Shown: positions 2,625 through 53,624, counted from the stretch's first letter. The stretch: DNA of 64,000 nucleotides from Escherichia coli (GCF_009931435.1 NZ_CP043414.1); one strand, 5' to 3'. Numbers and translations: made by a program. Notes: generated from the sequence alone by a model not told the origin.

Positions 2625-3674
2625 TCATCCCGGTAACCGACTTTTCGGTCTGCCCGGCCCCAGTAAGATCGCCAGTTTGCTGCCGCCTTTGGTGGTTTCC
2701 ATCCAGATTTTACACACGCTAGTTAATGGCACCGAAAGCAACATACCTACCGGGCCGAGCAGCCATCCCCAAATCAATAATGAAAGAAATACCACCATGG
2801 TGGACATCCCCAGGCGATGGCCCATCATTCGCGGTTCTAAAATATTGCCGATGACCATATGGACAACTAAAAACAATGCGCCGACCAGAATACATTCGTA
2901 AACGCCATTAAACAGCAGCACCTGAATCATTGGCGGTACGGCGGAAATTACCGCGCCGATATTGGGCACGTAGTTGAGCAAAAACGCCAGTACTGCCCAC
3001 ATCAGCGCAAACTGTACGCCCATAAGTTCCAGCCCCAGCCAGACGATAATGCCTGTCCATAAACTTAGCAGTGTCTTCAATGCAAGATAGTGCGAAACAC
3101 CTTTTAAGGCGCGGTGTAGTCCGGCGATGTGAATCTGTGGATTATTCAACGCAAAACGCATTTTGTAAGGGACGTGGCGCACTTCAAACAGCATGAAAAC
3201 TACGGTCATCACCAGCAAAAGCACGCTCGCCATTGCCCCGGAAAGCCCGGTCATTAGCGCCGTGGTGAAGGTAACCACTTTTTCCGAGTCCATCCGCTGC
3301 AGCATTCGCTCCGGCGACATATGCAAATTAAGAAAAGGCAACATCTCCTGCAATTTAAAAAGTTTGCGCGTCAGCTCCTTATTAAACTTCGGCAGCATAG
3401 AGATGAATTCGTTAAACGAAGCTGCCAGTACACCGACCAGCGCGGTTAGTGCGATCAGCATCACCACCACCACAATCGTAATTGCAACGGGGCGTTGTAC
3501 TCCGCGACGAATAAACCAGGTGACGAGCGGGTTGAGGACGATGGCAAAAAACAGCGCCAGTAACAGTTGCACAATGATATCTGCCGCTGCGTGAATTCCC
3601 GCGAGGATCACTACCAGCGAGGCCAGCTTGAGCAGAATGTGCATGCCCGTTTTATCGGGTTGAGGGGTTTCCAT
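2625..3674 (-). CDS. yhhT: AI-2E/PerM-family membrane transporter YhhT
   Basis: Track ORF 2625..3755; start moved to internal ATG (3674-3672) giving the 349-aa YhhT; polytopic membrane protein. Confidence 0.85.
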   Translation of the reverse strand: METPQPDKTGMHILLKLASLVVILAGIHAAADIIVQLLLALFFAIVLNPLVTWFIRRGVQRPVAITIVVVVMLIALTALVGVLAASFNEFISMLPKFNKELTRKLFKLQEMLPFLNLHMSPERMLQRMDSEKVVTFTTALMTGLSGAMASVLLLVMTVVFMLFEVRHVPYKMRFALNNPQIHIAGLHRALKGVSHYLALKTLLSLWTGIIVWLGLELMGVQFALMWAVLAFLLNYVPNIGAVISAVPPMIQVLLFNGVYECILVGALFLVVHMVIGNILEPRMMGHRLGMSTMVVFLSLLIWGWLLGPVGMLLSVPLTSVCKIWMETTKGGSKLAILLGPGRPKSRLPG

Positions 3675-3805
3675 TGGGGCTTCCTTGTGACTTTTTGTAT
3701 TAAGTGTAGCGGGAGTCACGCCAGCAATATTCTGATTCTTCCTGCTGATTTTCACGTCAGCACGTGGTAAAAATGAAACACTGTTGTAAAAATGTGGTGA
3801 TCCTC

Positions 3806-5023
3806 ATGCCCGAACCCGTAGCCGAACCCGCGCTAAACGGATTGCGCCTGAATTTGCGCATTGTCTCCATTGTCATGTTTAACTTCGCCAGCTACCTCAC
3901 CATCGGGTTGCCGCTCGCTGTATTACCGGGCTATGTCCATGATGTGATGGGCTTTAGCGCTTTCTGGGCAGGATTGGTTATCAGCCTGCAATATTTCGCC
4001 ACCTTGCTGAGCCGCCCTCATGCCGGACGTTACGCCGATTTGCTGGGACCCAAAAAGATTGTCGTCTTCGGTTTATGCGGCTGCTTTTTGAGCGGTTTGG
4101 GGTATCTGACGGCAGGGTTAACCGCCAGTCTGCCCGTCATCAGCCTGTTATTACTGTGCCTGGGGCGCGTGATCCTTGGGATTGGGCAAAGTTTTGCCGG
4201 AACGGGATCGACCCTATGGGGCGTTGGCGTGGTTGGTTCGCTGCATATCGGGCGGGTGATTTCGTGGAACGGCATTGTCACTTACGGGGCGATGGCAATG
4301 GGCGCGCCGTTAGGTGTGGTGTTTTATCACTGGGGCGGCTTGCAGGCGTTAGCGTTAATCATTATGGGTGTGGCGCTGGTGGCCATTTTGTTAGCGATCC
4401 CGCGTCCGACGGTAAAAGCCAGCAAAGGCAAACCGCTGCCGTTTCGCGCGGTGCTTGGGCGTGTCTGGTTATACGGCATGGCGCTGGCGTTGGCTTCTGC
4501 CGGATTTGGCGTTATCGCCACCTTTATCACATTGTTTTATGACGCTAAAGGCTGGGACGGTGCGGCTTTTGCGCTGACGCTGTTTAGCTGTGCGTTTGTC
4601 GGTACGCGTTTGTTATTTCCTAACGGCATTAACCGTATCGGCGGCTTAAATGTGGCGATGCTCTGCTTTAGCGTTGAGATTATTGGCCTGCTGTTGGTCG
4701 GCGTGGCGACCATGCCGTGGATGGCGAAAATTGGCGTCTTACTGGCAGGGGCGGGGTTTTCGCTGGTGTTCCCGGCGCTTGGTGTGGTGGCGGTCAAAGC
4801 AGTGCCGCAGCAGAATCAGGGGGCGGCGCTGGCAACTTACACCGTATTTATGGATTTATCGCTTGGCGTGACCGGACCACTGGCTGGGCTGGTGATGAGT
4901 TGGGCGGGCGTCCCGGTGATTTATCTGGCGGCGGCGGGACTGGTCGCAATCGCGTTATTACTGACGTGGCGATTAAAAAAACGGCCTCCGGTGGAAGTAC
5001 CTGAGGCCATCTCATCATCTTAA
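3806..5023 (+). CDS. yhhS: MFS transporter YhhS
   Basis: Track ORF begins at GTG 3764; ATG at 3806 gives MPEPVAEPALNG..., the 405-aa YhhS. Confidence 0.85.
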   Translation: MPEPVAEPALNGLRLNLRIVSIVMFNFASYLTIGLPLAVLPGYVHDVMGFSAFWAGLVISLQYFATLLSRPHAGRYADLLGPKKIVVFGLCGCFLSGLGYLTAGLTASLPVISLLLLCLGRVILGIGQSFAGTGSTLWGVGVVGSLHIGRVISWNGIVTYGAMAMGAPLGVVFYHWGGLQALALIIMGVALVAILLAIPRPTVKASKGKPLPFRAVLGRVWLYGMALALASAGFGVIATFITLFYDAKGWDGAAFALTLFSCAFVGTRLLFPNGINRIGGLNVAMLCFSVEIIGLLLVGVATMPWMAKIGVLLAGAGFSLVFPALGVVAVKAVPQQNQGAALATYTVFMDLSLGVTGPLAGLVMSWAGVPVIYLAAAGLVAIALLLTWRLKKRPPVEVPEAISSS

Positions 5024-5656: not shown

Positions 5657-6322
5657 TTAACTCGCCTGCAAAGCGTTGATTTCGGATTTATCTGCCAGTC
5701 TTTTCAACAGCATATTGAGTAATACGCCATACATTGGCAGGAAGAAAACGATACTGATTAACACTTTGAAACAGTAATCGACCAGCGCGATTTCCATCCA
5801 GTGTTCAGCCATAAAGGCATCTGGGCTGCGCCAGAAGGCAATGAAGAAGAAGGCCAGCGTGTCGCTGACGTTCCCAAACAGGGTGGAAGCCGTCGGTGCC
5901 AGCCACCAGCGACGACTCTGACGCAGGCGGTTAAAAACGTGCACGTCGAGGATTTGCCCCAGCGCGTAGGCCATGAAACTGGCGGTGGCGATACGGGCGA
6001 CAAACAGGTTGAAGTGGGCGAGCGCGCCGAACCCCTGCCATGAACCCATATAGAACAGCGACGAGATGACGTAGGAGATCAGCAATGCGGGGATCATCAC
6101 CGCAAAGATGATGCGACGAGCCAGCGGCGCGCCAAAAATACGCACAGTCAGGTCGGTAGCAAGGAAAATAAACGGAAAGCTAAACGCGCCCCAGGTGGTA
6201 TGGAAACCAAAAATGGATACGGGAAGCTGAACCAGATAGTTACTGGAGGTGATCACCAACAGATGAAATAACGATAACCAGAACAACGCCTTATAGCGTT
6301 GAGTTTGCGAGAAAACGTTCAT
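5657..6322 (-). CDS. yhhQ: queuosine-precursor transporter YhhQ
   Basis: 221-aa polytopic membrane ORF matching YhhQ. Confidence 0.9.
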   Translation of the reverse strand: MNVFSQTQRYKALFWLSLFHLLVITSSNYLVQLPVSIFGFHTTWGAFSFPFIFLATDLTVRIFGAPLARRIIFAVMIPALLISYVISSLFYMGSWQGFGALAHFNLFVARIATASFMAYALGQILDVHVFNRLRQSRRWWLAPTASTLFGNVSDTLAFFFIAFWRSPDAFMAEHWMEIALVDYCFKVLISIVFFLPMYGVLLNMLLKRLADKSEINALQAS

Positions 6323-6542
6323 ATTGTACCTTTTTGATTAACCATTGGGGTGAGGGAACCCAATACGTACGACACGTCTGTTACCTTAACATAATAACGT
6401 GCTGACCCTTTTTTCGAGCCGCCGCATGATACTGCTTTACGTTGACAATGCAATGGTTAATTTTCACGCAATCGTTAACCTGGTTTGCTTACGGACTCAC
6501 AGGGCGTAAACTAGCGCCGTTTTTTTATGTGATGAGAAGAAA

Positions 6543-6788
6543 ATGACCGATCTCTTTTCCAGCCCTGACCACACACTCGACGCACTTGGCCTGCGCTGCC
6601 CGGAACCAGTAATGATGGTGCGCAAAACTGTGCGCAATATGCAGCCAGGTGAAACGTTGCTGATTATTGCTGACGATCCGGCGACGACACGCGATATTCC
6701 TGGGTTTTGTACCTTTATGGAACACGAACTGGTTGCGAAAGAGACCGATGGACTGCCTTATCGTTATTTGATTCGCAAATCGGGGTAA
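6543..6788 (+). CDS. tusA: sulfur carrier protein TusA
   Basis: 81-aa ORF with the conserved [11 protein letters not shown] motif; matches TusA. Confidence 0.95.
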
Positions 6789-6843
6789 GGTGGATCAGGC
6801 TAGCGGACCGATCGCGCTCAATTTTGCGGCTTGAAACCGGTTT

Positions 6844-7079
6844 GTAGGACGGATAAGGCGTTCAAGCTGCATCTGGCGATACGGTGCACAATGCCTGATG
6901 CGACGCTGTCGCGTCTTATCATGCCTACGAGTTCTATGCTCTGTGTAGGACGGATAAGGCGTTCACGCCGCATCCGGCGGTTGTGTGTGGATGCCTGATG
7001 CGACGCTGTCGCGTCTTATCATGCCTACGAGTTCAATGCCCTGTGTAGGCCAGATAAGGCGTTTACGCCGCATCCGGCA
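6844..7079. repeat. BIME cluster of five REP units in alternating orientation
   Basis: GTAGGACGGATAAGGCGTTCA..GCATC.GGCG and its inverted partner GCCTGATGCGACGCTGTCGCGTCTTATCATGCCTAC recur with ~100-bp periodicity (units start near 6844, 6893, 6946, 6993, 7045). Confidence 0.8.
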
Positions 7080-43423: not shown

Positions 43424-44719
43424 ATGGTTAGTTTAGAGAAGAACGATCACTTAATGTTGGCGCGCCAGCTGCCATTGAAATCTGTTGCCCTGATACTGGC
43501 GGGAGGACGTGGTACCCGCCTGAAGGATTTAACCAATAAGCGAGCAAAACCGGCCGTACACTTCGGCGGTAAGTTCCGCATTATCGACTTTGCACTGTCT
43601 AACTGCATCAACTCCGGGATCCGTCGTATGGGCGTGATCACCCAGTACCAGTCCCATACTCTGGTGCAGCACATTCAGCGCGGCTGGTCATTCTTCAATG
43701 AAGAAATGAACGAGTTTGTCGATCTGTTGCCAGCGCAGCAGAGAATGAAAGGGGAAAACTGGTATCGCGGCACCGCAGATGCGGTCACGCAAAACCTCGA
43801 CATTATTCGCCGTTACAAAGCGGAATATGTGGTGATCCTGGCGGGCGACCATATCTACAAGCAAGACTACTCGCGTATGCTTATCGACCACGTCGAAAAA
43901 GGCGCACGTTGCACCGTCGCTTGTATGCCTGTACCGATTGAAGAAGCCTCCGCATTTGGCGTTATGGCGGTTGATGAGAACGATAAAATTATCGAATTCG
44001 TTGAAAAACCCGCTAACCCGCCGTCAATGCCGAACGATCCGAGCAAATCTCTGGCGAGCATGGGTATCTACGTCTTTGACGCCGACTATCTGTATGAACT
44101 GCTGGAAGAAGACGATCGCGATGAGAACTCCAGCCACGACTTTGGTAAAGATTTGATTCCCAAAATCACCGAAGCCGGTCTGGCCTATGCGCACCCGTTC
44201 CCGCTCTCTTGCGTACAATCCGACCCGGATGCCGAGCCGTACTGGCGCGATGTGGGTACGCTTGAAGCTTACTGGAAAGCGAACCTCGATCTGGCATCAG
44301 TGGTGCCGGAACTGGATATGTACGATCGCAATTGGCCAATTCGCACCTACAATGAATCATTACCGCCAGCGAAATTCGTGCAAGATCGCTCCGGTAGCCA
44401 CGGGATGACCCTTAACTCACTGGTTTCCGGCGGTTGTGTGATCTCCGGTTCGGTGGTGGTGCAGTCCGTTCTGTTCTCGCGCGTTCGCGTGAATTCATTC
44501 TGCAACATTGATTCCGCCGTATTGTTACCGGAAGTATGGGTAGGTCGCTCGTGCCGTCTGCGCCGCTGCGTCATTGATCGTGCTTGTGTTATTCCGGAAG
44601 GCATGGTGATTGGTGAAAACGCAGAGGAAGATGCACGTCGTTTCTATCGTTCAGAAGAAGGCATCGTGCTGGTAACGCGCGAAATGCTACGGAAGTTAGG
44701 GCATAAACAGGAGCGATAA
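43424..44719 (+). CDS. glgC: glucose-1-phosphate adenylyltransferase GlgC
   Basis: ATG at 43424 ([17 protein letters not shown]...); 431 aa. Confidence 0.95.
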
Positions 44720-46152
44720 TGCAGGTTTTACATGTATGTTCAGAGATGTTCCCGCTGCTTAAAACCGGCGGTCTGGCTGATGTTATTGGGGCATTACCCG
44801 CAGCACAAATCGCAGACGGCGTTGACGCTCGCGTACTGTTGCCTGCATTTCCCGATATTCGCCGTGGCGTAACCGATGCGCAGGTGGTATCTCGCCGTGA
44901 TACCTTCGCAGGGCATATCACGCTGTTGTTCGGCCATTACAACGGGGTTGGCATTTACCTGATTGACGCGCCGCATCTCTATGATCGTCCGGGAAGCCCG
45001 TATCACGATACCAACTTATTTGCCTACACTGACAACGTATTGCGTTTTGCGCTTCTTGGGTGGGTTGGGGCAGAAATGGCCAGCGGGCTTGACCCATTCT
45101 GGCGCCCTGATGTGGTGCATGCGCACGACTGGCATGCGGGCCTTGCGCCTGCGTATCTGGCGGCGCGCGGGCGTCCGGCGAAGTCGGTGTTTACTGTGCA
45201 CAACCTGGCCTATCAAGGCATGTTTTATGCACATCACATGAATGACATCCAATTGCCATGGTCATTCTTTAATATTCATGGGCTGGAATTCAACGGACAA
45301 ATCTCTTTCCTGAAGGCTGGTCTGTACTATGCCGATCATATTACGGCGGTCAGCCCGACCTACGCTCGCGAGATCACCGAACCGCAGTTTGCCTACGGTA
45401 TGGAAGGTCTGTTGCAACAGCGTCACCGTGAAGGGCGTCTTTCCGGCGTACTAAACGGCGTGGATGAAAAAATCTGGAGTCCAGAGACGGACTTACTGTT
45501 GGCCTCGCGTTACACCCGCGATACGTTGGAAGATAAAGCGGAGAATAAGCGCCAGTTACAAATCGCAATGGGGCTTAAGGTTGACGATAAAGTGCCGCTT
45601 TTTGCAGTGGTGAGCCGTCTGACCAGCCAGAAAGGTCTCGACCTGGTGCTGGAAGCCTTACCAGGCCTTCTGGAGCAGGGCGGACAGCTGGCGCTACTCG
45701 GCGCGGGTGATCCGGTGTTGCAGGAAGGTTTCCTTGCCGCGGCCGCGGAATATCCCGGACAAGTGGGCGTTCAGATTGGCTATCACGAAGCATTTTCGCA
45801 TCGCATTATGGGCGGCGCGGACGTCATTCTGGTGCCCAGCCGTTTTGAACCGTGCGGCTTAACGCAACTTTATGGATTGAAGTACGGTACGCTGCCGTTA
45901 GTGCGGCGCACCGGTGGGCTTGCTGATACGGTTTCTGACTGTTCTCTTGAGAACCTTGCAGATGGCGTCGCCAGTGGGTTTGTCTTTGAAGATAGTAATG
46001 CCTGGTCGCTGTTACGGGCTATTCGACGTGCTTTTGTACTGTGGTCCCGTCCTTCACTGTGGCGGTTTGTGCAACGTCAGGCTATGGCAATGGATTTTAG
46101 CTGGCAGGTCGCGGCGAAGTCGTACCGTGAGCTTTACTATCGCTTGAAATAG
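44719..46152 (+). CDS. glgA: glycogen synthase GlgA
   Basis: 477 aa; N-terminal KTGGLADV motif; start overlaps glgC stop (TAATG). Confidence 0.95.
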
Positions 46153-48618
<2,466 letters not shown>

Positions 48619-48634
48619 GTTCACTAAAAAATAG

Positions 48635-48663
48635 AACGGGGCCAAATCGGTCCCGTTTTTTTT
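48635..48663 (+). terminator. rho-independent terminator of glgP
   Basis: 9-bp stem AACGGGGCC/GGTCCCGTT (one G-U pair) with loop AAATC, followed by T8. Confidence 0.8.
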
Positions 48664-48712
48664 CGCCTTTATTTCGGAGAAGTGTCCAGAGGGGCAAGGG
48701 GATTCGGGGGAG

Positions 48713-48718
48713 TATAAT
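48713..48718 (+). promoter_or_regulatory. candidate -10 hexamer (TATAAT) for the glgP-glpD cluster
   Basis: Perfect TATAAT 18 bp upstream of the first ATG of cluster gene 1 and downstream of the glgP terminator; no good -35 seen. Confidence 0.35.
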
Positions 48719-48735
48719 TTCGCCATTCAGAAAGA

Positions 48736-50253
48736 ATGGAAAGAATAATGCAAAACAGAAAATGGATTTTGACCTCGCTGATAATGACTTTTTTCGGCAT
48801 CCCCATACTGGCGCAATTTTTGGCAGCGGTTATTGCCATGCTGGGGGCCGGGCTTGCCGCTATTCTTGAGGCTTGCAATTTACTCTTTACGCCAACAATT
48901 TATCTTCTACTCAACATCTTTATGCTGACGCTGGGGGCGATAATCCTATTTTTCTCTGGTCGCGTGTGGGCCGGTGATAGCGCACCAGAAAACAGAGAAA
49001 TAGCCGTCTGGCGGCAATGCTTTTTTCTTTTACCTGCACTGTTAACTCTGGTTGGCTGGATAATCACGCTACATCTGGCAGATTATCAACTTCGCCAGCT
49101 GGGAGCGGGTTGGTTGGCAAATCTTATGCTCCCCTGGCTGGGCGTATTGTTAGTCTCATTAGTCGGTGGTGAGTACTGGTGGATAGTCATTATTCCCGTT
49201 GGCGCGCATATCAGTTTTTCGCTGGGGTACGGCTGGCCAACCAGACATCCTTTAACCGGCACGTACGGGTTACGTTGCCGTAATTCCCTCCTGTTTATCC
49301 TTCTCATGCTGGTTTTTGTCGCTGGTTATCAGGCTTATTTATATAAACAGCTTAATCCTGGTGTTGGTGTACGCGAAAATATTGATACCTGGGCCTGGCG
49401 ACCCGATAAACTCAATAATCAACTGACGCCACTGCGTGGTAAACCGCAAATTCAGTTTACACAAAACTGGCCGCGACTCGATGGTGCTACGGCGGCGTAC
49501 CCAATTTATGCTTCTGCCTTTTATGCGTTGAGCGTTATACCGGAAGATTTCCACACCTGGGAATATCTGGAGAACTCTCGTACCCCCGATGCATATAACA
49601 GGATTGTTAAAGGTGATGCCGATATTATTTTTGTGGCGCAACCTTCCGGTGGGCAGAAAAAACGTGCAGAGGAATCGGGCGTCACTTTGAACTACACTCC
49701 TTTCGCCCGTGAAGCATTCGTTTTCATCGTCAATGCGGATAACCCGGTTAATTCCCTGACTGACCAACAGGTGCGTGACATCTTCAGTGGCGTAATTACC
49801 AACTGGCGTACTGTTGGCGGTAACGATCAGGAGATCCAGACCTGGCAACGCCCGGAAGACTCTGGCAGCCAGACAGTGATGCAATCGCAGGTCATGAAAA
49901 ATGTCCGCATGATCTCGCCGCAGGAAACCGAAGTGGCAAGCATGATGGAGGGAATGATTAAAGTTGTTGCCGAATACCGTAATACAAACAACTCAATAGG
50001 CTACACCTTCCGCTATTACGCAACACAAATGAACGCCGATAAAAATATAAAACTGCTAGCTATTAACGGTATTGCACCGACTGCGGAAAATATTCGTAAC
50101 GGCAAATATCCGTATATCGTCGATGCCTTTATGGTAACGCGGGAAAATACTACGTCAGAAACACAAAAACTGGTCGAATGGTTTTTAATGCCGCAGGGGC
50201 AGAGTCTGGTGGAAGATGTGGGCTATGTGCCGCTGTATCCAACAATGAAATAA
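48736..50253 (+). CDS. fusion protein: N-terminal polytopic membrane module (about 200 aa, 5-6 TM) plus C-terminal PstS-family (phosphate-binding-protein-like) domain
   Basis: 505-aa ORF (alternative ATG at 48748 has better SD spacing); hydrophobic N-terminus; C-terminal half is about 60% identical by eye to the next gene and carries PstS-like motifs (DIFSGVITNWRTVGG; RPEDSGSQTVM; IGYTFRYY). Confidence 0.7.
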   Translation: MERIMQNRKWILTSLIMTFFGIPILAQFLAAVIAMLGAGLAAILEACNLLFTPTIYLLLNIFMLTLGAIILFFSGRVWAGDSAPENREIAVWRQCFFLLPALLTLVGWIITLHLADYQLRQLGAGWLANLMLPWLGVLLVSLVGGEYWWIVIIPVGAHISFSLGYGWPTRHPLTGTYGLRCRNSLLFILLMLVFVAGYQAYLYKQLNPGVGVRENIDTWAWRPDKLNNQLTPLRGKPQIQFTQNWPRLDGATAAYPIYASAFYALSVIPEDFHTWEYLENSRTPDAYNRIVKGDADIIFVAQPSGGQKKRAEESGVTLNYTPFAREAFVFIVNADNPVNSLTDQQVRDIFSGVITNWRTVGGNDQEIQTWQRPEDSGSQTVMQSQVMKNVRMISPQETEVASMMEGMIKVVAEYRNTNNSIGYTFRYYATQMNADKNIKLLAINGIAPTAENIRNGKYPYIVDAFMVTRENTTSETQKLVEWFLMPQGQSLVEDVGYVPLYPTMK

Positions 50254-50278
50254 CGCTCGAGAGAAAGGAATCAGCGCA

Positions 50279-51271
50279 ATGAATAAATTCACCGGTGTTT
50301 TACTATTAGGTACGGCGTTACTGGCGGGATGTGTCGACCGGGAAGGGTACTATAACAGCGTCAGGGAAGAAGAGAGTCATGGACTGACGTCTCTGCGGGG
50401 GCAACCTGAATTACGTTACAGCGATGATTGGTCAAGATGGCCGAGAGTGTACGGCGCTACAGCCTTATACCCGCTGTATGCCTCCGCGTATTATGAATTA
50501 GTACCCGAGCCAAAAGATAAGGATCGAACCTCGCTGGCCTGGCAGGCGTATGGTTTGCAACAAACCCGAACAGCTGAAGCCTACGATAGTCTGATCAAGG
50601 GTACCGCGACGGTTATTTTTGTTGCACAACCGTCGGAAGGACAGAAAAAACGTGCAGAAGAAGCAGGCGTTAAACTGAAATATACCGCGTTTGCCCGCGA
50701 AGCCTTTGTCTTTATCGTTGATATCAAAAACCCGGTTAATTCACTTAGCGAACAGCAGGTCAAAGACATTTTTAGCGGTAAAGTGAGTCGCTGGAATAAA
50801 GTGGGCGGCGGTGACGAAAGTATAAAAGTCTGGCAGCGGCCAGAAGATTCTGGAAGCCAAACGGTTATGAAGGGACTGGTTATGCAAGATACTCCAATGC
50901 TGCCAGCCAAAAAATCCACTGTTATCGATCTTATGGGCGGTTTAATTACCGAAGTCGCCGACTACCAAAACACACCATCTTCCATTGGATACACCTTCCA
51001 CTATTACGTCACACGTATGAATGACAATATGCTCAAAATGCGCAAACAGATCAAACTGCTGGCTATAAATGGCGTTGCACCTACAGAGGAAAATATCCGT
51101 AACGGCACTTATCCGTACATAATTGATGCTTATATGGTGACGCACGAAAACCCTACGCTGGAAACGCAGAAATTCGTCGACTGGTTTTTAAGCCCGCAGG
51201 GACAGCAATTGGTAGAGGATGTGGGGTATGTGCCGATTCATGACGCATCATACGAATCATCAGTGCAATAA
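50279..51271 (+). CDS. PstS-family (phosphate-binding-protein-like) lipoprotein
   Basis: 330 aa; lipobox LLAGC after signal peptide; AAGGAA SD 8 nt upstream; motifs GATALYPLYASAY, DIFSGKVSRWNKVGG, RPEDSGSQTVM, IGYTFHYY align to E. coli PstS motifs (GAGATFPAPVYAKW, IYLGKIKKWDD, RRADGSGTSFVF, IGYVEYAY). Confidence 0.75.
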   Translation: MNKFTGVLLLGTALLAGCVDREGYYNSVREEESHGLTSLRGQPELRYSDDWSRWPRVYGATALYPLYASAYYELVPEPKDKDRTSLAWQAYGLQQTRTAEAYDSLIKGTATVIFVAQPSEGQKKRAEEAGVKLKYTAFAREAFVFIVDIKNPVNSLSEQQVKDIFSGKVSRWNKVGGGDESIKVWQRPEDSGSQTVMKGLVMQDTPMLPAKKSTVIDLMGGLITEVADYQNTPSSIGYTFHYYVTRMNDNMLKMRKQIKLLAINGVAPTEENIRNGTYPYIIDAYMVTHENPTLETQKFVDWFLSPQGQQLVEDVGYVPIHDASYESSVQ

Positions 51272-51873
51272 TGATGAATAAAATCAGACTTTATATTCCT
51301 CCGTTAATTCTTGGTTTTGTTATTGTGCCGTTGTTGGTGTGGCCGACGGTGGTTGCGCTGGCTGCTTCTGTTATCACGCTGAGTTTTCTGGGAGAGATAC
51401 TGTTCTCTATCCCGCTCATGATCAGGCATATTTCGCTTCTGCAATTACAACTATGGTTATCGGCTGAATATGCGCTTTTCTGCTGTGCAATGGTGGGCGT
51501 TGGTTGGCAATTTGCTCGTATAACTCAATCTGAATTGAAAAGCAGACTGCATTGTTGGCTGGTATTTGCACCAGTTTATTTCTGGTTGCTCCTGTGGAAT
51601 ATCATTTTCTATGTCGCGCCAGCGAATATTGCGTTGCTGGAGAATATGCGCAGTTTCTTTCTGACAGTTGTCTGGCTCCCACTAAATTTTTCACCATTTT
51701 GGTCCCAACCGTGGATTGACTTTGTCGGTCCAATAAGCGCACAGCTTGGTTTTGCGTTGGGATATTATTGCCAGTGGCGTAGCAAAAATAGAAGCCAGAT
51801 ACGGAAGTGGAGTGAGTGGGGAACGTGCCTGAGTTTTGTTACGTTGGGTATGATGGCGTGGGCTTTGCGGTAA
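51271..51873 (+). CDS. polytopic membrane protein, paralog of the N-terminal module of cluster gene 1
   Basis: 200 aa; ATG overlaps previous stop (TAATG); segment VGPISAQLGFALGYY resembles VGAHISFSLGYGW in gene 1. Confidence 0.65.
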   Translation: MMNKIRLYIPPLILGFVIVPLLVWPTVVALAASVITLSFLGEILFSIPLMIRHISLLQLQLWLSAEYALFCCAMVGVGWQFARITQSELKSRLHCWLVFAPVYFWLLLWNIIFYVAPANIALLENMRSFFLTVVWLPLNFSPFWSQPWIDFVGPISAQLGFALGYYCQWRSKNRSQIRKWSEWGTCLSFVTLGMMAWALR

Positions 51874-51923
51874 TTCCCTGACTCAAAAAGTAGGTCAGAT
51901 TGTTGACAAAGTGCACTTTGTTC

Positions 51924-52023
51924 ATGCCGGATGCGACATGAACGTCTTATTGGCCTACAAGACCATGCAAATTCAATATATTGCATAAGCCACGTAGGCC
52001 TGATAAGCGTAGCGCATCAGGCA
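51924..52023. repeat. REP pair (BIME) between the cluster and glpD
   Basis: GCCGGATGCGACATGAACGTCTTATTGGCCTAC and inverted GTAGGCCTGATAAGCGTAGCGCATCAGGCA, followed by TTTTTTGTTT. Confidence 0.75.
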
Positions 52024-52085
52024 GTTTTTTGTTTATCATCAGTCTCAGGTCAGATTGAAATCTGACCTGGCCACATTACGTTAAT

Positions 52086-53591
52086 TTACGACGCCAGAGA
52101 CAACCTCTGCTGCGTATACTCCCCCAGCCACTGACTCACACGAGATTGTTGATCCGCATTCAGCCACATGCCTTGTTTTGTGCGACGCCACAGGGCATCG
52201 TCGGCGCGGCGGACCCATTCGTGATCCACAAGGTATTTCAGCTCCGCTTCGTAGAACTCATGACCGAAATCTTCCCCGAGATCGCCTATCGCCCCCGCAT
52301 TGCCGAGCAGCAGTTCGCTGTTGCTGCCGTAAGTGCGCGCGTAGTGACGTGCCAGCGATTCAGTCAGGAACGGGTAACGGCGGCGCAGGCGGGCGGCATA
52401 ATCGTCGCGATCGCCTTCAATGGCACCACCCGGCAGCACGCTCTCTTTCGTCCACGCCGGGCCAATGCCCTGATAATACGGCGTCAGTTTTTCCAGCGCG
52501 TGCTCCGCCAGTTTGCGGTAGGTGGTCAGCTTACCGCCGAATACCGATAACAGCGGAGCTTTGCCGTTTTCATCATGGATATCAAGGGTGTAATCACGGG
52601 TAATGGCCTGCGGCGAATCAGATTCATCATCACACAGCGGACGCACACCGGAGTAGGTCCAGACGATATCGTCCCGGCTTAGCGGCTTTTTAAAGTGCGC
52701 GTTATACACTTTCAGCAGGTAATTGATTTCACTCTCTTCAATCTTCACCGCTTTCGGATCGCCTTTATACTCCACATCGGTGGTGCCGATAATGGAAAAC
52801 TCGTCCATCCACGGGATCACGAAGACAATACGTTTATCTTCGTTTTGCAGAATGTAGGCTTGCTTCTGGGTATGCACACGCGGCACGACAATATGGCTGC
52901 CTTTGATCAGGCGAATGCCATAAGGTGAGGGTAGATGCATCCCGTCGTCGAAGAACTGCTTCACCCACGGGCCGGTGGCGTTCACCAGACCGCGTGCCTG
53001 CCAGCTGTATTTTTTACCGGTATCAATATCTTCTGCTTCTACAATCCACAGGCCGTTTTCGCGGCGAGCAGAAGTGGCACGAGTACGGGTAAGCACTTCA
53101 CCGCCTTTACGCACCACCATCTGGGCGTTGGCGAGTACCAGACGGGCGTCGTCTACCCAACAGTCGGAATATTCGAATCCGCGCTTAATTTCCGGTTTTA
53201 ACACTGAATTTGTGCCAAAACGCAAACCGGTTGATCCCGGCAGGCTGGTGCGTTTACCCAGATGATCGTACATAAACAGACCAATACGGATCATCCACGC
53301 CGGACGCAGATGCGGGCGATGCGGCAGGCGAAAACGCATCGGGAAAGCGATATGGGGGGCCATTTTCAGCAACACTTCACGTTCAGCCAGCGCCTCGCTG
53401 ACCAGACGGAATTCATAGTGCTCAAGGTAGCGCAGGCCACCATGAATGAGTTTTGAACTGGCGGAAGAGGTCGCACAAGCGAGATCCTGCGCCTCCAGCA
53501 TCAGCACGGATAAACCGCGTCCAGCGGCGTCTGCCGCGATACCAGCACCATTGATGCCGCCACCTATCACAATCAGATCTTTGGTTTCCAT
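52086..53591 (-). CDS. glpD: aerobic glycerol-3-phosphate dehydrogenase GlpD
   Basis: ATG at 53591 (METKDLIVIGGGINGAGIA..., FAD motif); 501 aa; track ORF starts at an upstream GTG. Confidence 0.95.
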   Translation of the reverse strand: METKDLIVIGGGINGAGIAADAAGRGLSVLMLEAQDLACATSSASSKLIHGGLRYLEHYEFRLVSEALAEREVLLKMAPHIAFPMRFRLPHRPHLRPAWMIRIGLFMYDHLGKRTSLPGSTGLRFGTNSVLKPEIKRGFEYSDCWVDDARLVLANAQMVVRKGGEVLTRTRATSARRENGLWIVEAEDIDTGKKYSWQARGLVNATGPWVKQFFDDGMHLPSPYGIRLIKGSHIVVPRVHTQKQAYILQNEDKRIVFVIPWMDEFSIIGTTDVEYKGDPKAVKIEESEINYLLKVYNAHFKKPLSRDDIVWTYSGVRPLCDDESDSPQAITRDYTLDIHDENGKAPLLSVFGGKLTTYRKLAEHALEKLTPYYQGIGPAWTKESVLPGGAIEGDRDDYAARLRRRYPFLTESLARHYARTYGSNSELLLGNAGAIGDLGEDFGHEFYEAELKYLVDHEWVRRADDALWRRTKQGMWLNADQQSRVSQWLGEYTQQRLSLAS

Positions 53592-53624
53592 GCTGCCCTC
53601 ATTCACTTTCGTTAAAGCTCATAA

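Follow-up and report, generated by a model that had tools for sequence, protein, structure and literature searches.

A three-gene accessory island between glgP and glpD in Escherichia coli encodes a predicted membrane-tethered PstS-like protein, a PstS-like lipoprotein and a remote homologue of the tethering module

The window analysed here, a 64,000-nt stretch of Escherichia coli NZ_CP043414.1, carries three same-strand open reading frames (genes 1, 2 and 3) that occupy exactly positions 48736–51873 (+) and form an accessory island in the glgP–glpD interval. This site is O-island 133 (OI-133; named as such in PMC2907692), and in E. coli O157:H7 EDL933 the same locus has these three genes too, their nucleotide identity to the window's copies being 91.5%. 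The island in the window is the rarer allele, as only two complete genomes carry genes 1 and 2 at 99% identity. The glgP–glpD gap is a variable accessory island site, and the K-12 pseudogene yzgL, in which the start of gene 1 is joined to the end of gene 3, is a deletion scar of the island. Immediately 3' of glgP, a hairpin followed by a T-run (GAACGGGGCCAAATCGGTCCCGTTTTTTTT; 48635..48665, +), read by eye and absent from the pattern-scan list, probably terminates the glg transcript, in which case transcription of the island would have to start from a promoter of its own. A TATAAT hexamer (48713..48718, +), 30 nt 5' of the ATG at 48748, is a possible candidate for the −10 box of an island operon; it has no good −35 partner and is therefore missing from the promoter scan list. 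More generally, the promoter pattern scan of the window was uninformative, a search for a Pho box through the whole window found none, and no ABC permease or ATPase genes adjoin genes 1–3 in the window.

Gene 1 (48736–50253, +) contains two in-frame ATGs, at 48736 and 48748, of which the second is the more likely start because orthologues begin with MMQNRKW or MMPNRKW. It reads as the anchor gene of the island, with a product predicted to be a self-contained inner-membrane protein composed of a membrane module (M), a flexible linker of ~40 residues and a PstS-like periplasmic binding domain (P). The M module (residues 1–205 counted from ATG 48748; 48748..49362, +) has six predicted helices, placed by AlphaFold at residues 2–42, 49–77, 83–110, 120–140, 145–165 and 173–202, and in this model five of them probably cross the membrane and one is re-entrant, with the N-terminus in and the C-terminus out; residues P19, G71, R89, L101, W104, W144, P150 and Q195 are near-invariant across the family. 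The linker (residues 206–243; 49363..49476, +; pLDDT 47–66) bears a conserved LTPLRGxPxL motif, which is also retained in gene 2, after its lipid-anchor cysteine. The P domain (49477..50253, +; pLDDT ~85–94) was recognized through PF12849 (PBP_like_2, E 4.4e-29), TIGR02136, Foldseek, and hhalign against E. coli PstS (91.5%). Thousands of sequences share the fused architecture of ~500 aa, across Escherichia, Salmonella, Klebsiella, Rahnella, Budviciaceae and Betaproteobacteria. This conservation excludes a frameshift artefact as the origin of gene 1, a possibility raised in the preliminary description of the locus. The proposal made there of a binding domain tethered to its own membrane module is supported.

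Functionally, the P domains of both gene 1 and gene 2 look like divergent members of the PstS family rather than standard PstS: they match TIGR02136 at 117.6 and 120.8 bits (E 6e-34 and 6e-35), respectively, under the curated NCBIfam cutoff of 206.6 bits. RefSeq names them PstS-family ABC substrate-binding proteins, and phmmer matches them to solved PstS proteins (E 4e-16). The AlphaFold model of the P domain retrieved 9l8j, 4gd5, 4q8r and 1twy with Foldseek (E 1e-14 to 6e-16, TMt 0.73–0.83), pointing to a type II periplasmic-binding-protein fold that matches phosphate-bound PstS structures. When aligned to K-12 PstS by hhalign, residues T10, F11, S38, D56, R135, S139, G140 and T141 correspond to T, A, T, A, R, S, G and S, such that six of the eight phosphate-ligating residues are retained or conservatively swapped, and ligand binding is a prediction. 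The retained positions are invariant or nearly so across the family, and the anion-binding motifs R-x-x-x-S-G-S/T and G-A-T are kept in both P domains. Asp56, which is important for phosphate selectivity in PstS, is replaced by an invariant Ala in the P family, so the ligand may not be phosphate.

Gene 2 (50279..51271, +) encodes a P domain alone as a predicted lipoprotein. Its signal peptide and lipobox (50279–50332, +) read MNKFTGVLLLGTALLAG followed by the anchor cysteine, meeting the [LVI][ASTVI][GAS]C pattern in the sequence, and related members of its clade carry lipoboxes too. Under the Lol sorting rule, Val rather than Asp at position +2 predicts outer-membrane anchoring; the residue after the cysteine is Val, and the product is thus probably anchored in the outer membrane. 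Gene 2 and the C-terminal half of gene 1 had been described as paralogues, and this holds, with 58% identity over 292 residues by BLASTP (E 8e-120) and all of the quoted shared blocks present. Identity to gene 2 is 59.5% for the gene 1 P domain and ~60% for the fused proteins of Salmonella and Klebsiella. Evolutionarily, gene 2 falls within a monophyletic clade of ~320–335-aa lipoproteins nested inside the enterobacterial fused clade in a neighbour-joining tree, which is indicative only, and we assign it to an old lipoprotein lineage with a predicted signal peptide and lipid anchor in place of M. Its nearest relative outside Escherichia is found in Pseudocitrobacter (75% identity). Synonymous divergence between gene 2 and the gene 1 P domain is saturated (pS 0.74; longest identical run 17 nt), which rules out a recent tandem duplication of P. 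In addition, the 3' tail of gene 2 (51237..51271, +), which marks the right-hand junction of a cassette exchange in DNA alignments of the window and O157 against loci L002, L003 and L015, is a relic of another gene. In other E. coli an unrelated 255-aa gene (ending ...YDASSESPGK and the stop) occupies the slot 5' of gene 3, and its 3' end is homologous to the last ~33 nt of gene 2 (encoding ...HDASYESSVQ and the stop). Gene 2 thus came in by cassette replacement.

Gene 3 (51271..51873, +; 200 aa) consists of an M module alone, overlaps the gene 2 stop codon by 1 nt (TAATG) and ends just after its final membrane helix, at the point where the linker begins in gene 1. The preliminary description had likened it to the N-terminus of gene 1, and the likeness holds between families and fails between single sequences: pairwise BLASTP, Smith-Waterman with shuffles, and Escherichia-only HMMER and hhalign profiles did not detect it, and it becomes detectable only with profiles that include distant fused proteins. 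Using an M profile built from 22 N-domain sequences of the fused family from many genera, hhalign matched the gene 1 M family to the gene 3 family with 97–98% probability (E 5.8e-11 in local and 1.2e-12 in global mode), colinearly over 164–187 columns with a score of 71.6, whereas the controls remained far weaker (E 0.08 for a reversed alignment; E >= 0.05 and scores <= 18 for all 20 within-window column shuffles; best E 0.0018 and scores <= 27 for block permutations). When the N-domain profile was run exhaustively against 1.84e9 representatives, hmmsearch gave just 153 matches. They include P0021, which represents the gene 3 family (library-wide E 3e-4), and a bridging sequence, P0331, that matches the N-domain at E 9e-8 and shares 35% identity with gene 3 (E 3e-27). 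In word-indexed homologue searches, whether the query was gene 3 or the N-domain of gene 1, all sequences recovered were from Escherichia, and many of them were truncated. The AlphaFold model of gene 3 (pLDDT 81, pTM 0.79) has six helices in the same pattern as M, a match that is partly circular since the underlying alignment included fused-family N-domains, and with Foldseek it retrieved fused-family proteins only (E 5e-4, TMq 0.62). Loop charges also agree between the two families, being positive at the N-terminus, L2-3 and L5-6 and non-positive at L3-4 and L4-5. Gene 3 is therefore a remote homologue and M-only paralogue of the gene 1 membrane part. M itself belongs to no described family: Pfam, NCBIfam and PADLOC gave no match for M or gene 3, Foldseek gave no structural relatives of M outside its own family, and M contains no kinase, cyclase or other recognizable output domain. 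Among the best 150 M-domain representatives, 76 were M plus P, 10 were complete M without P, and 63 were partial M in which P was not detected; P, the domain that this screen covered, was the sole family domain found beside M.

The layout [M-P][P][M] proposed for the cluster is thus built from homologous modules, as judged by BLASTP for P and by profile comparison for M. The history proposed with it, tandem duplication at the locus and then a fusion or fission event, is not supported: besides the saturated divergence, the tail relic and the old lipoprotein clade, genes 2 and 3 are unequally distributed. Among 5,426 complete E. coli genomes, full-length gene 1 occurs in 3,347 (~62%) and full-length gene 3 in 3,828, compared with 884 for gene 2, and ~2,900 genomes retain gene 3 without gene 2, there behind the 255-aa gene. 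Gene 3 is thus the more constant partner of gene 1 in E. coli, the two occurring together in about 3,300–3,800 of these genomes. The pairing of a 255/278-aa gene with an M-only gene recurs in the much more divergent metagenomic scaffold L015, which argues that the adjacency of P and M in genes 2 and 3 is secondary. Elsewhere, fused genes stand solo and without transporter neighbours, including in Rahnella (between purB and phoPQ), Jinshanibacter, a betaproteobacterium, Salmonella (between ruvC and ruvA) and one further taxon, and no permease or ATPase gene lay beside M/P loci in the ~10 loci that we inspected in different genera. Comparison of fused and split forms among relatives thus shows a widespread and usually solo fused form, with the P-only lipoprotein clade nested inside it, and the fused form appears ancestral. 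On this basis the direction of change was loss; of the two events left open in the preliminary description, fission is favoured, through loss of M from the widespread fused form, and fusion is not.

Taken together, we posit that a solo M-P protein was the ancestral state, that gene 2 was derived from a cassette, that gene 3 is an M-only partner, and that the system serves as a tethered oxyanion sensor; this is the best explanation of the locus, and we give it about an even chance of being right as a whole. The functional part, a tethered periplasmic oxyanion sensor, is our best guess from sequence and is held with low confidence. P would sit in the periplasm and close on phosphate or a similar tetrahedral oxyanion, and M-P would act as an inner-membrane sensor or regulator rather than in uptake, because P is tethered and lacks a transporter. 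M would be the transducing or partner-binding part, with the M-only gene 3 protein hetero-oligomerizing with the gene 1 M. Gene 2, which entered the locus in exchange for other cassette genes, would provide an extra copy of the binder on a separate anchor and would not be the other half of gene 3. Against the sensor model stand an M module without an output domain or structural relative and a window without a Pho box. In its most far-reaching form, M could be a new signal-transducing or solute-conducting module, with M-P and M-only proteins forming an ATPase-independent oxyanion sensor or transceptor that feeds virulence regulation, and the P-type lipoproteins of Rhs arrays (below) being an offshoot co-opted for inter-bacterial competition; we regard this extension as unlikely. 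The reduced type III secretion reported for an OI-133 deletion in a published screen (PMC3378721) would fit an oxyanion sensor that feeds virulence regulation. That phenotype comes from deletion of the whole island, and a polar or indirect effect is possible. Literature searches by locus tag gave only expression tables and one island-deletion screen, the papers found list the island genes as 'unknown', and what we found on PBP_like_2 proteins with transmembrane segments does not describe the M-P architecture.

Several other readings of the same genes deserve consideration. The P domains could simply serve transport, with M-P and the lipoprotein as tethered binders that pass phosphate, or an anion related to it, on to PstCAB or to a different importer encoded elsewhere; the PstS-family assignment, the conservation of most ligand residues, the agreeing RefSeq names and the general precedent of ABC importers whose binding domains are fused or tethered all point that way. 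Yet the loci inspected lack permease and ATPase genes, M matches no ABC membrane domain in Pfam and no known structure, both P domains score under the TIGR02136 cutoff, and the window has no Pho box, and we thus hold transport to be improbable, if the least so of these alternatives. Genes 2 and 3 could instead together make up a second unit of the gene 1 type, joined non-covalently into an M plus P complex, since their modules are homologous to those of gene 1, their overlapping stop and start codons couple them translationally, and the order of a P-lipoprotein followed by M recurs in Pseudocitrobacter, where a relative of gene 2 overlaps by 4 nt the M gene that comes after it, whose P domain is decaying. 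However, the Pseudocitrobacter M is only ~23% identical to gene 3 whereas the P partners are 75% identical, so M and P were not inherited together; the tail relic marks the adjacency of genes 2 and 3 as one of replacement, gene 3 mostly occurs without gene 2 and follows the 255-aa gene elsewhere, with a similar pairing in the divergent scaffold, and the Val at +2 predicts an outer-membrane location for gene 2, apart from an inner-membrane M. We therefore place such a split complex somewhat behind transport, at a level of doubt similar to that of the extended sensor model.

A role in competition is slightly more credible than the split complex and slightly less so than transport. Here M-P, P and M would be envelope immunity or decoy factors of polymorphic-toxin (Rhs/T6SS) cassettes, with the glgP–glpD interval as a hot spot for orphan cassettes. 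Two P-type lipoproteins indeed lie inside a Salmonella Rhs orphan toxin/immunity array with Ntox34 and a HEAT-repeat immunity-like gene, and in other strains and genera the island carries small, immunity-like cargo, namely a 234–236-aa protein, a YbbD_head lipoprotein and a 255-aa all-alpha protein. The 234–236-aa protein has a faint DUF4279 match in its Klebsiella copy and no significant Pfam match in its 236-aa E. coli form, and the alternative cassette genes of 236 aa and 255 aa yielded nothing in Pfam, NCBIfam and PADLOC. The locus is also polymorphic for presence and absence and deeply divergent between alleles (~91% nucleotide identity versus 95–99.8% for neighbouring glgA). Against this, neither the island in the window nor the solo M-P loci contain a toxin gene, the Rhs association comes from one Salmonella locus type, genes 1–3 match no Pfam immunity family, and PADLOC, whose scope is phage defence only, had no match among the window genes. 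Moreover, invariant oxyanion-binding residues and low dN/dS are the opposite of what fast-evolving immunity proteins display: against O157, dN/dS is 0.10–0.24 over dS 0.19–0.33 for the three genes (gene 2 0.10, gene 3 0.18), and all three are under purifying selection. The P-type lipoproteins of Rhs arrays and the immunity-like island genes are left unexplained by the sensor model. The same dN/dS values rule out pseudogene status for genes 1–3 and make it very improbable that the three ORFs are non-functional remnants of a formerly larger island. Decay does occur in the family, as many database relatives are truncated or frameshifted, K-12 is left with the yzgL scar, and the Pseudocitrobacter P domain is degenerate, but the ORFs are intact both here and in O157, and full-length forms exist in hundreds to thousands of complete genomes.

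Although the tethered-sensor reading establishes no new principle, tethered binding proteins being already known, the module assignments have consequences beyond this strain. Relatives of gene 1 occur in Salmonella and Klebsiella, and the annotation 'PstS-family ABC substrate-binding' hides a conserved six-helix module and a missing transporter partner. Recognition of the M family, together with its M-only paralogue and the P-only lipoprotein offshoot, corrects the 'hypothetical protein' annotation of gene 3 and accounts for yzgL as a deletion scar, and O-island 133 thereby gains concrete, testable molecular content. The locus further illustrates cleanly, in a natural setting, how a domain can be lost and cassettes replaced at a chromosomal hot spot.

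Compared with known systems, the P domains share fold and anion-binding motifs with PstS of the PstSCAB importer (PF12849, TIGR02136), but PstS works with pstCAB and is free in the periplasm, whereas P has no pstCAB partner and is tethered by M in gene 1 or, as predicted, by a lipid anchor in gene 2; Asp56 of PstS and its invariant Ala counterpart, together with the sub-cutoff TIGR02136 scores, likewise set the two apart. In importers of the OpuA and GlnPQ types, binding domains are either joined covalently to the ABC membrane domains or anchored next to them by lipid. Gene 1 resembles these in that a flexible linker permanently attaches its binding domain to a membrane domain with several crossings. 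It differs in that M, with no Pfam or structural match, is not a membrane domain of the ABC type, has no ATPase encoded nearby, and is confined to a small family (153 matches in 1.84e9 representatives). For sensing, the nearest parallel is Pseudomonas aeruginosa, in which PstS signals to the chemoreceptor CtpL (PMC8050422): while that binder is free and its receptor has a recognizable signalling domain, as opposed to a binder fused to an M without a known output domain in gene 1, it is a PstS-type binder used for sensing rather than uptake and thus a precedent for reading gene 1 as a sensor.

Genomically, the island sits between glgP (46171-48618), which has a hairpin and T-run 3' of it, and glpD (52086-53606), which is oppositely oriented, and holds three genes read as ORFs on one strand: gene 1 (48736-50253), gene 2 (50279-51271) and gene 3 (51271-51873), the ATG of gene 3 overlapping the TAA of gene 2. 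G+C content falls from 50-57% in the flanking DNA to 45-49% in the island. Two in-frame ATGs make the gene 1 start ambiguous, ATG 48736 giving MERIMQNRKW and 505 aa and ATG 48748 giving MQNRKW and 501 aa; since its orthologues start MMQNRKW or MMPNRKW, ATG 48748 is the likelier. RefSeq models for orthologues have 502 aa, and the O157 model starts MMPNRKW one codon 5' of the window ATG 48748, at a codon that is ATA in the window. The adjoining glgA (44719-46152) matches every E. coli genome at 95-99.8% identity, which marks the host as E. coli proper. The island (48600-52100), by contrast, is only ~91% identical to common E. coli alleles (dS 0.19-0.33 against O157), and deep haplotypes are kept at this hot spot; the window alleles of genes 1 and 2 occur at 99% identity in only two complete genomes. 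The gap between gene 3 and glpD (51900-52030) contains REP-like palindromic sequence (e.g., GCCTGATAAGCGTAGCGCATCAGGC), and a full-region search found up to 40 match places per genome (median 18), consistent with a dispersed repeat there.

The preliminary description read these genes as a shuffled set of membrane (M) and binding (P) modules, [M-P][P][M]. For the P modules, all the shared blocks that it quoted are present, and gene 2 is a paralogue of the gene 1 C-terminal half, with 58% identity over 292 residues (BLASTP E 8e-120). Both match PBP_like_2 and, with scores below the curated cutoff, the PstS subfamily model TIGR02136, and the fold that AlphaFold predicts for gene 1 (mean pLDDT 83) superposes on experimental PstS structures. 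In a profile alignment to K-12 PstS, T10, S38, R135, S139, G140 and T141 are retained or conservatively substituted, and the Asp56 position is an invariant Ala across the P family. The P domains are divergent PstS family members.

The proposed resemblance between the gene 1 N-terminus and gene 3 was borne out by family profiles, not by pairwise statistics: BLASTP found nothing in the right region, Smith-Waterman gave z 3.3, HMMER with Escherichia-only profiles gave E ~0.1 even against a one-sequence database (no better than soluble gene 2), and hhalign with shallow profiles returned 1.3% probability. With an N-domain profile built from a 22-sequence alignment of fused proteins, hhalign gave a 97-98% probability match to the gene 3 family (E 5.8e-11 local, 1.2e-12 global), colinear across 164-187 columns with a score of 71.6. 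Controls gave E 0.08 for the reversed alignment, E of at least 0.05 and scores up to 18 for twenty column shuffles with hydrophobic segments held in place, and a best E of 0.0018 and scores up to 27 for block permutations. As independent evidence, an exhaustive HMMER scan with the N-domain profile matched only 153 of 1.84 billion representatives. These include P0021, which represents the gene 3 family (whole-library E 3e-4), and P0331 (E 9e-8), which shares 35% identity with gene 3 (E 3e-27) and therefore bridges both groups. Structurally, the gene 1 and gene 3 AlphaFold models each have six helices in the same order, and when the gene 3 model was searched against AFDB50 with Foldseek, the only hits besides its own orthologue were PstS-family proteins of the fused type (best E 5e-4, TMq 0.62), a fold match qualified by the presence of fused N-domains in the alignment behind that model. 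Loop charges are also alike in both groups, with the N-terminus, loop 2-3 and loop 5-6 positive and loops 3-4 and 4-5 non-positive; by the positive-inside rule, this pattern is compatible with an inside N-terminus, five membrane crossings, a re-entrant helix 4 and an outside C-terminus, so that P would be periplasmic. As gene 3 also terminates directly after its last helix, at the point where the gene 1 linker starts, the [M-P][P][M] layout is confirmed.

With whole gene 1 as query, the ~500-aa fused architecture proved widespread, occurring in Klebsiella, Salmonella, Intestinirhabdus, Phytobacter, Budviciaceae, Leminorella, Leclercia, Rahnella and Betaproteobacteria (98-100% coverage, 35-54% identity). 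Distant fused genes are solo insertions among housekeeping genes, such as purB/phoP (Rahnella) and ruvC/ruvA (Salmonella), and none of those inspected had ABC genes nearby. P accompanies M in 76 of the 150 top-ranking M-domain representatives; 10 have a complete M without P, and 63 a partial M with P undetected. Of 5,426 complete E. coli genomes, 3,347 have gene 1 at full length, 3,828 have gene 3 (any allele) and 884 have gene 2; almost all of these 884 carry the three-gene layout.

Evolutionarily, the modules are homologous as proposed, but the local tandem duplication followed by fusion or fission that had been invoked is a misfit. In a P-domain neighbour-joining tree, the ~320-335-aa lipobox forms, including gene 2, make up one clade within the enterobacterial fused proteins, and gene 2 is about as distant from Salmonella or Klebsiella fused proteins (~60%) as from the gene 1 P domain (59.5%). 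Between gene 2 and the gene 1 P domain, synonymous sites have reached saturation (pS 0.74) and no identical run exceeds 17 nt, which rules out recent duplication or gene conversion. Other E. coli have gene 1, a 236-aa and/or an unrelated 255-aa gene, and then a gene 3 allele, and in both the window and O157 the final ~33 nt of gene 2 (...HDASYESSVQ*) share homology with the 3' end of the 255-aa gene (...YDASSESPGK*), the homology running on into gene 3; gene 2 therefore entered by replacing these cassettes, its tail being a relic. Gene 3 is also found in far more genomes than gene 2. A much more divergent metagenomic scaffold (L015) carries a P-domain end, a 278-aa homologue of the 255-aa gene with 51% identity to it, a gene for M alone that shares 35% identity with gene 3, and a gene for a secreted protein with repeats, so the pairing of a 255-aa-type gene with M-only extends beyond E. 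coli; it is probably older than the [P][M] adjacency. Taken together, the tree, saturation, relic tail, L015, genome counts, solo fused genes and M-domain survey make fused M-P the likely ancestor, with P-only and M-only both arising by loss. Pseudocitrobacter has [P-lipoprotein][M with decaying P], the latter a 351-aa protein (L025, 8002-9057) whose degenerate P has an internal deletion (LDGEEGSWP for LDGATAAYP) and which looks like a natural intermediate from M-P to M-only.

Other combinations at the same locus include a fused gene with immunity-like genes (Klebsiella, Salmonella), [M-P][P][P] (strain TA054), a truncated M alone, and in K-12 the pseudogene yzgL, an island deletion scar in which approximately 220 nt from the start of gene 1 and ~60 nt from the end of gene 3 survive (window 48748-48970 and 51814-51873; L004 1644-1865). 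Alternative cassettes at this site (comparison loci L002 5668-7148, L007 7838-8958 and L010 8564-9109) include a YbbD_head lipoprotein, the all-alpha 255-aa protein, which belongs to no Pfam family, and a protein of 234-236 aa that is conserved in both E. coli and Klebsiella, with a faint DUF4279 match on the Klebsiella copy and no significant Pfam match for the E. coli copy; in Salmonella its first ~45 codons are fused to the YbbD_head gene, resembling a deletion junction. Secreted 141-143-aa proteins with (S/T)GxTTYRDxxGN-like repeats, absent from the window, flank the island in several Enterobacteriaceae (L016 6437-6868; L015 1686-2114; L020 3987-4412 and 9636-10064; L025 9231-9659). A Salmonella enterica Rhs orphan array (L005 1229-10291) holds two PstS-like lipoproteins (3234-4241 and 5986-6993) that belong to the same clade as gene 2. 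Interspersed with them are Rhs core-tail fragments, a toxin domain with an HExxH motif, a fragment of Ntox34, and immunity genes of HEAT- or Sel1-like type.

Functionally, dN/dS between the window and O157 (gene 1 M 0.24, gene 1 P 0.10, gene 2 0.10, gene 3 0.18) places all three genes under purifying selection. The lipobox of gene 2 is followed by Val, not Asp, which under the Lol sorting rule points to a putative outer-membrane location and argues against gene 2 being the half that gene 3 lacks. Genomic context does not support the functional class 'ABC substrate-binding protein'. We posit that M-P could serve in sensing or regulation as a tethered oxyanion binder, not in uptake, and that the M-only protein may hetero-oligomerise with gene 1 M. 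Against a sensor stand an M module without an output domain, the absence of Asp56 from P, a Pho box search of the window that found none, and the P-type lipoproteins of the Salmonella Rhs toxin/immunity array, for which it does not account. The locus is O-island 133 (PMC2907692), whose deletion was reported to reduce type III secretion in a screen (PMC3378721), weak evidence compatible with a regulatory role. Tethered binding domains are an already known kind. What is new here is a dedicated membrane module that is not of ABC type, together with offshoots of M and of P that stand alone, at a single hot spot.
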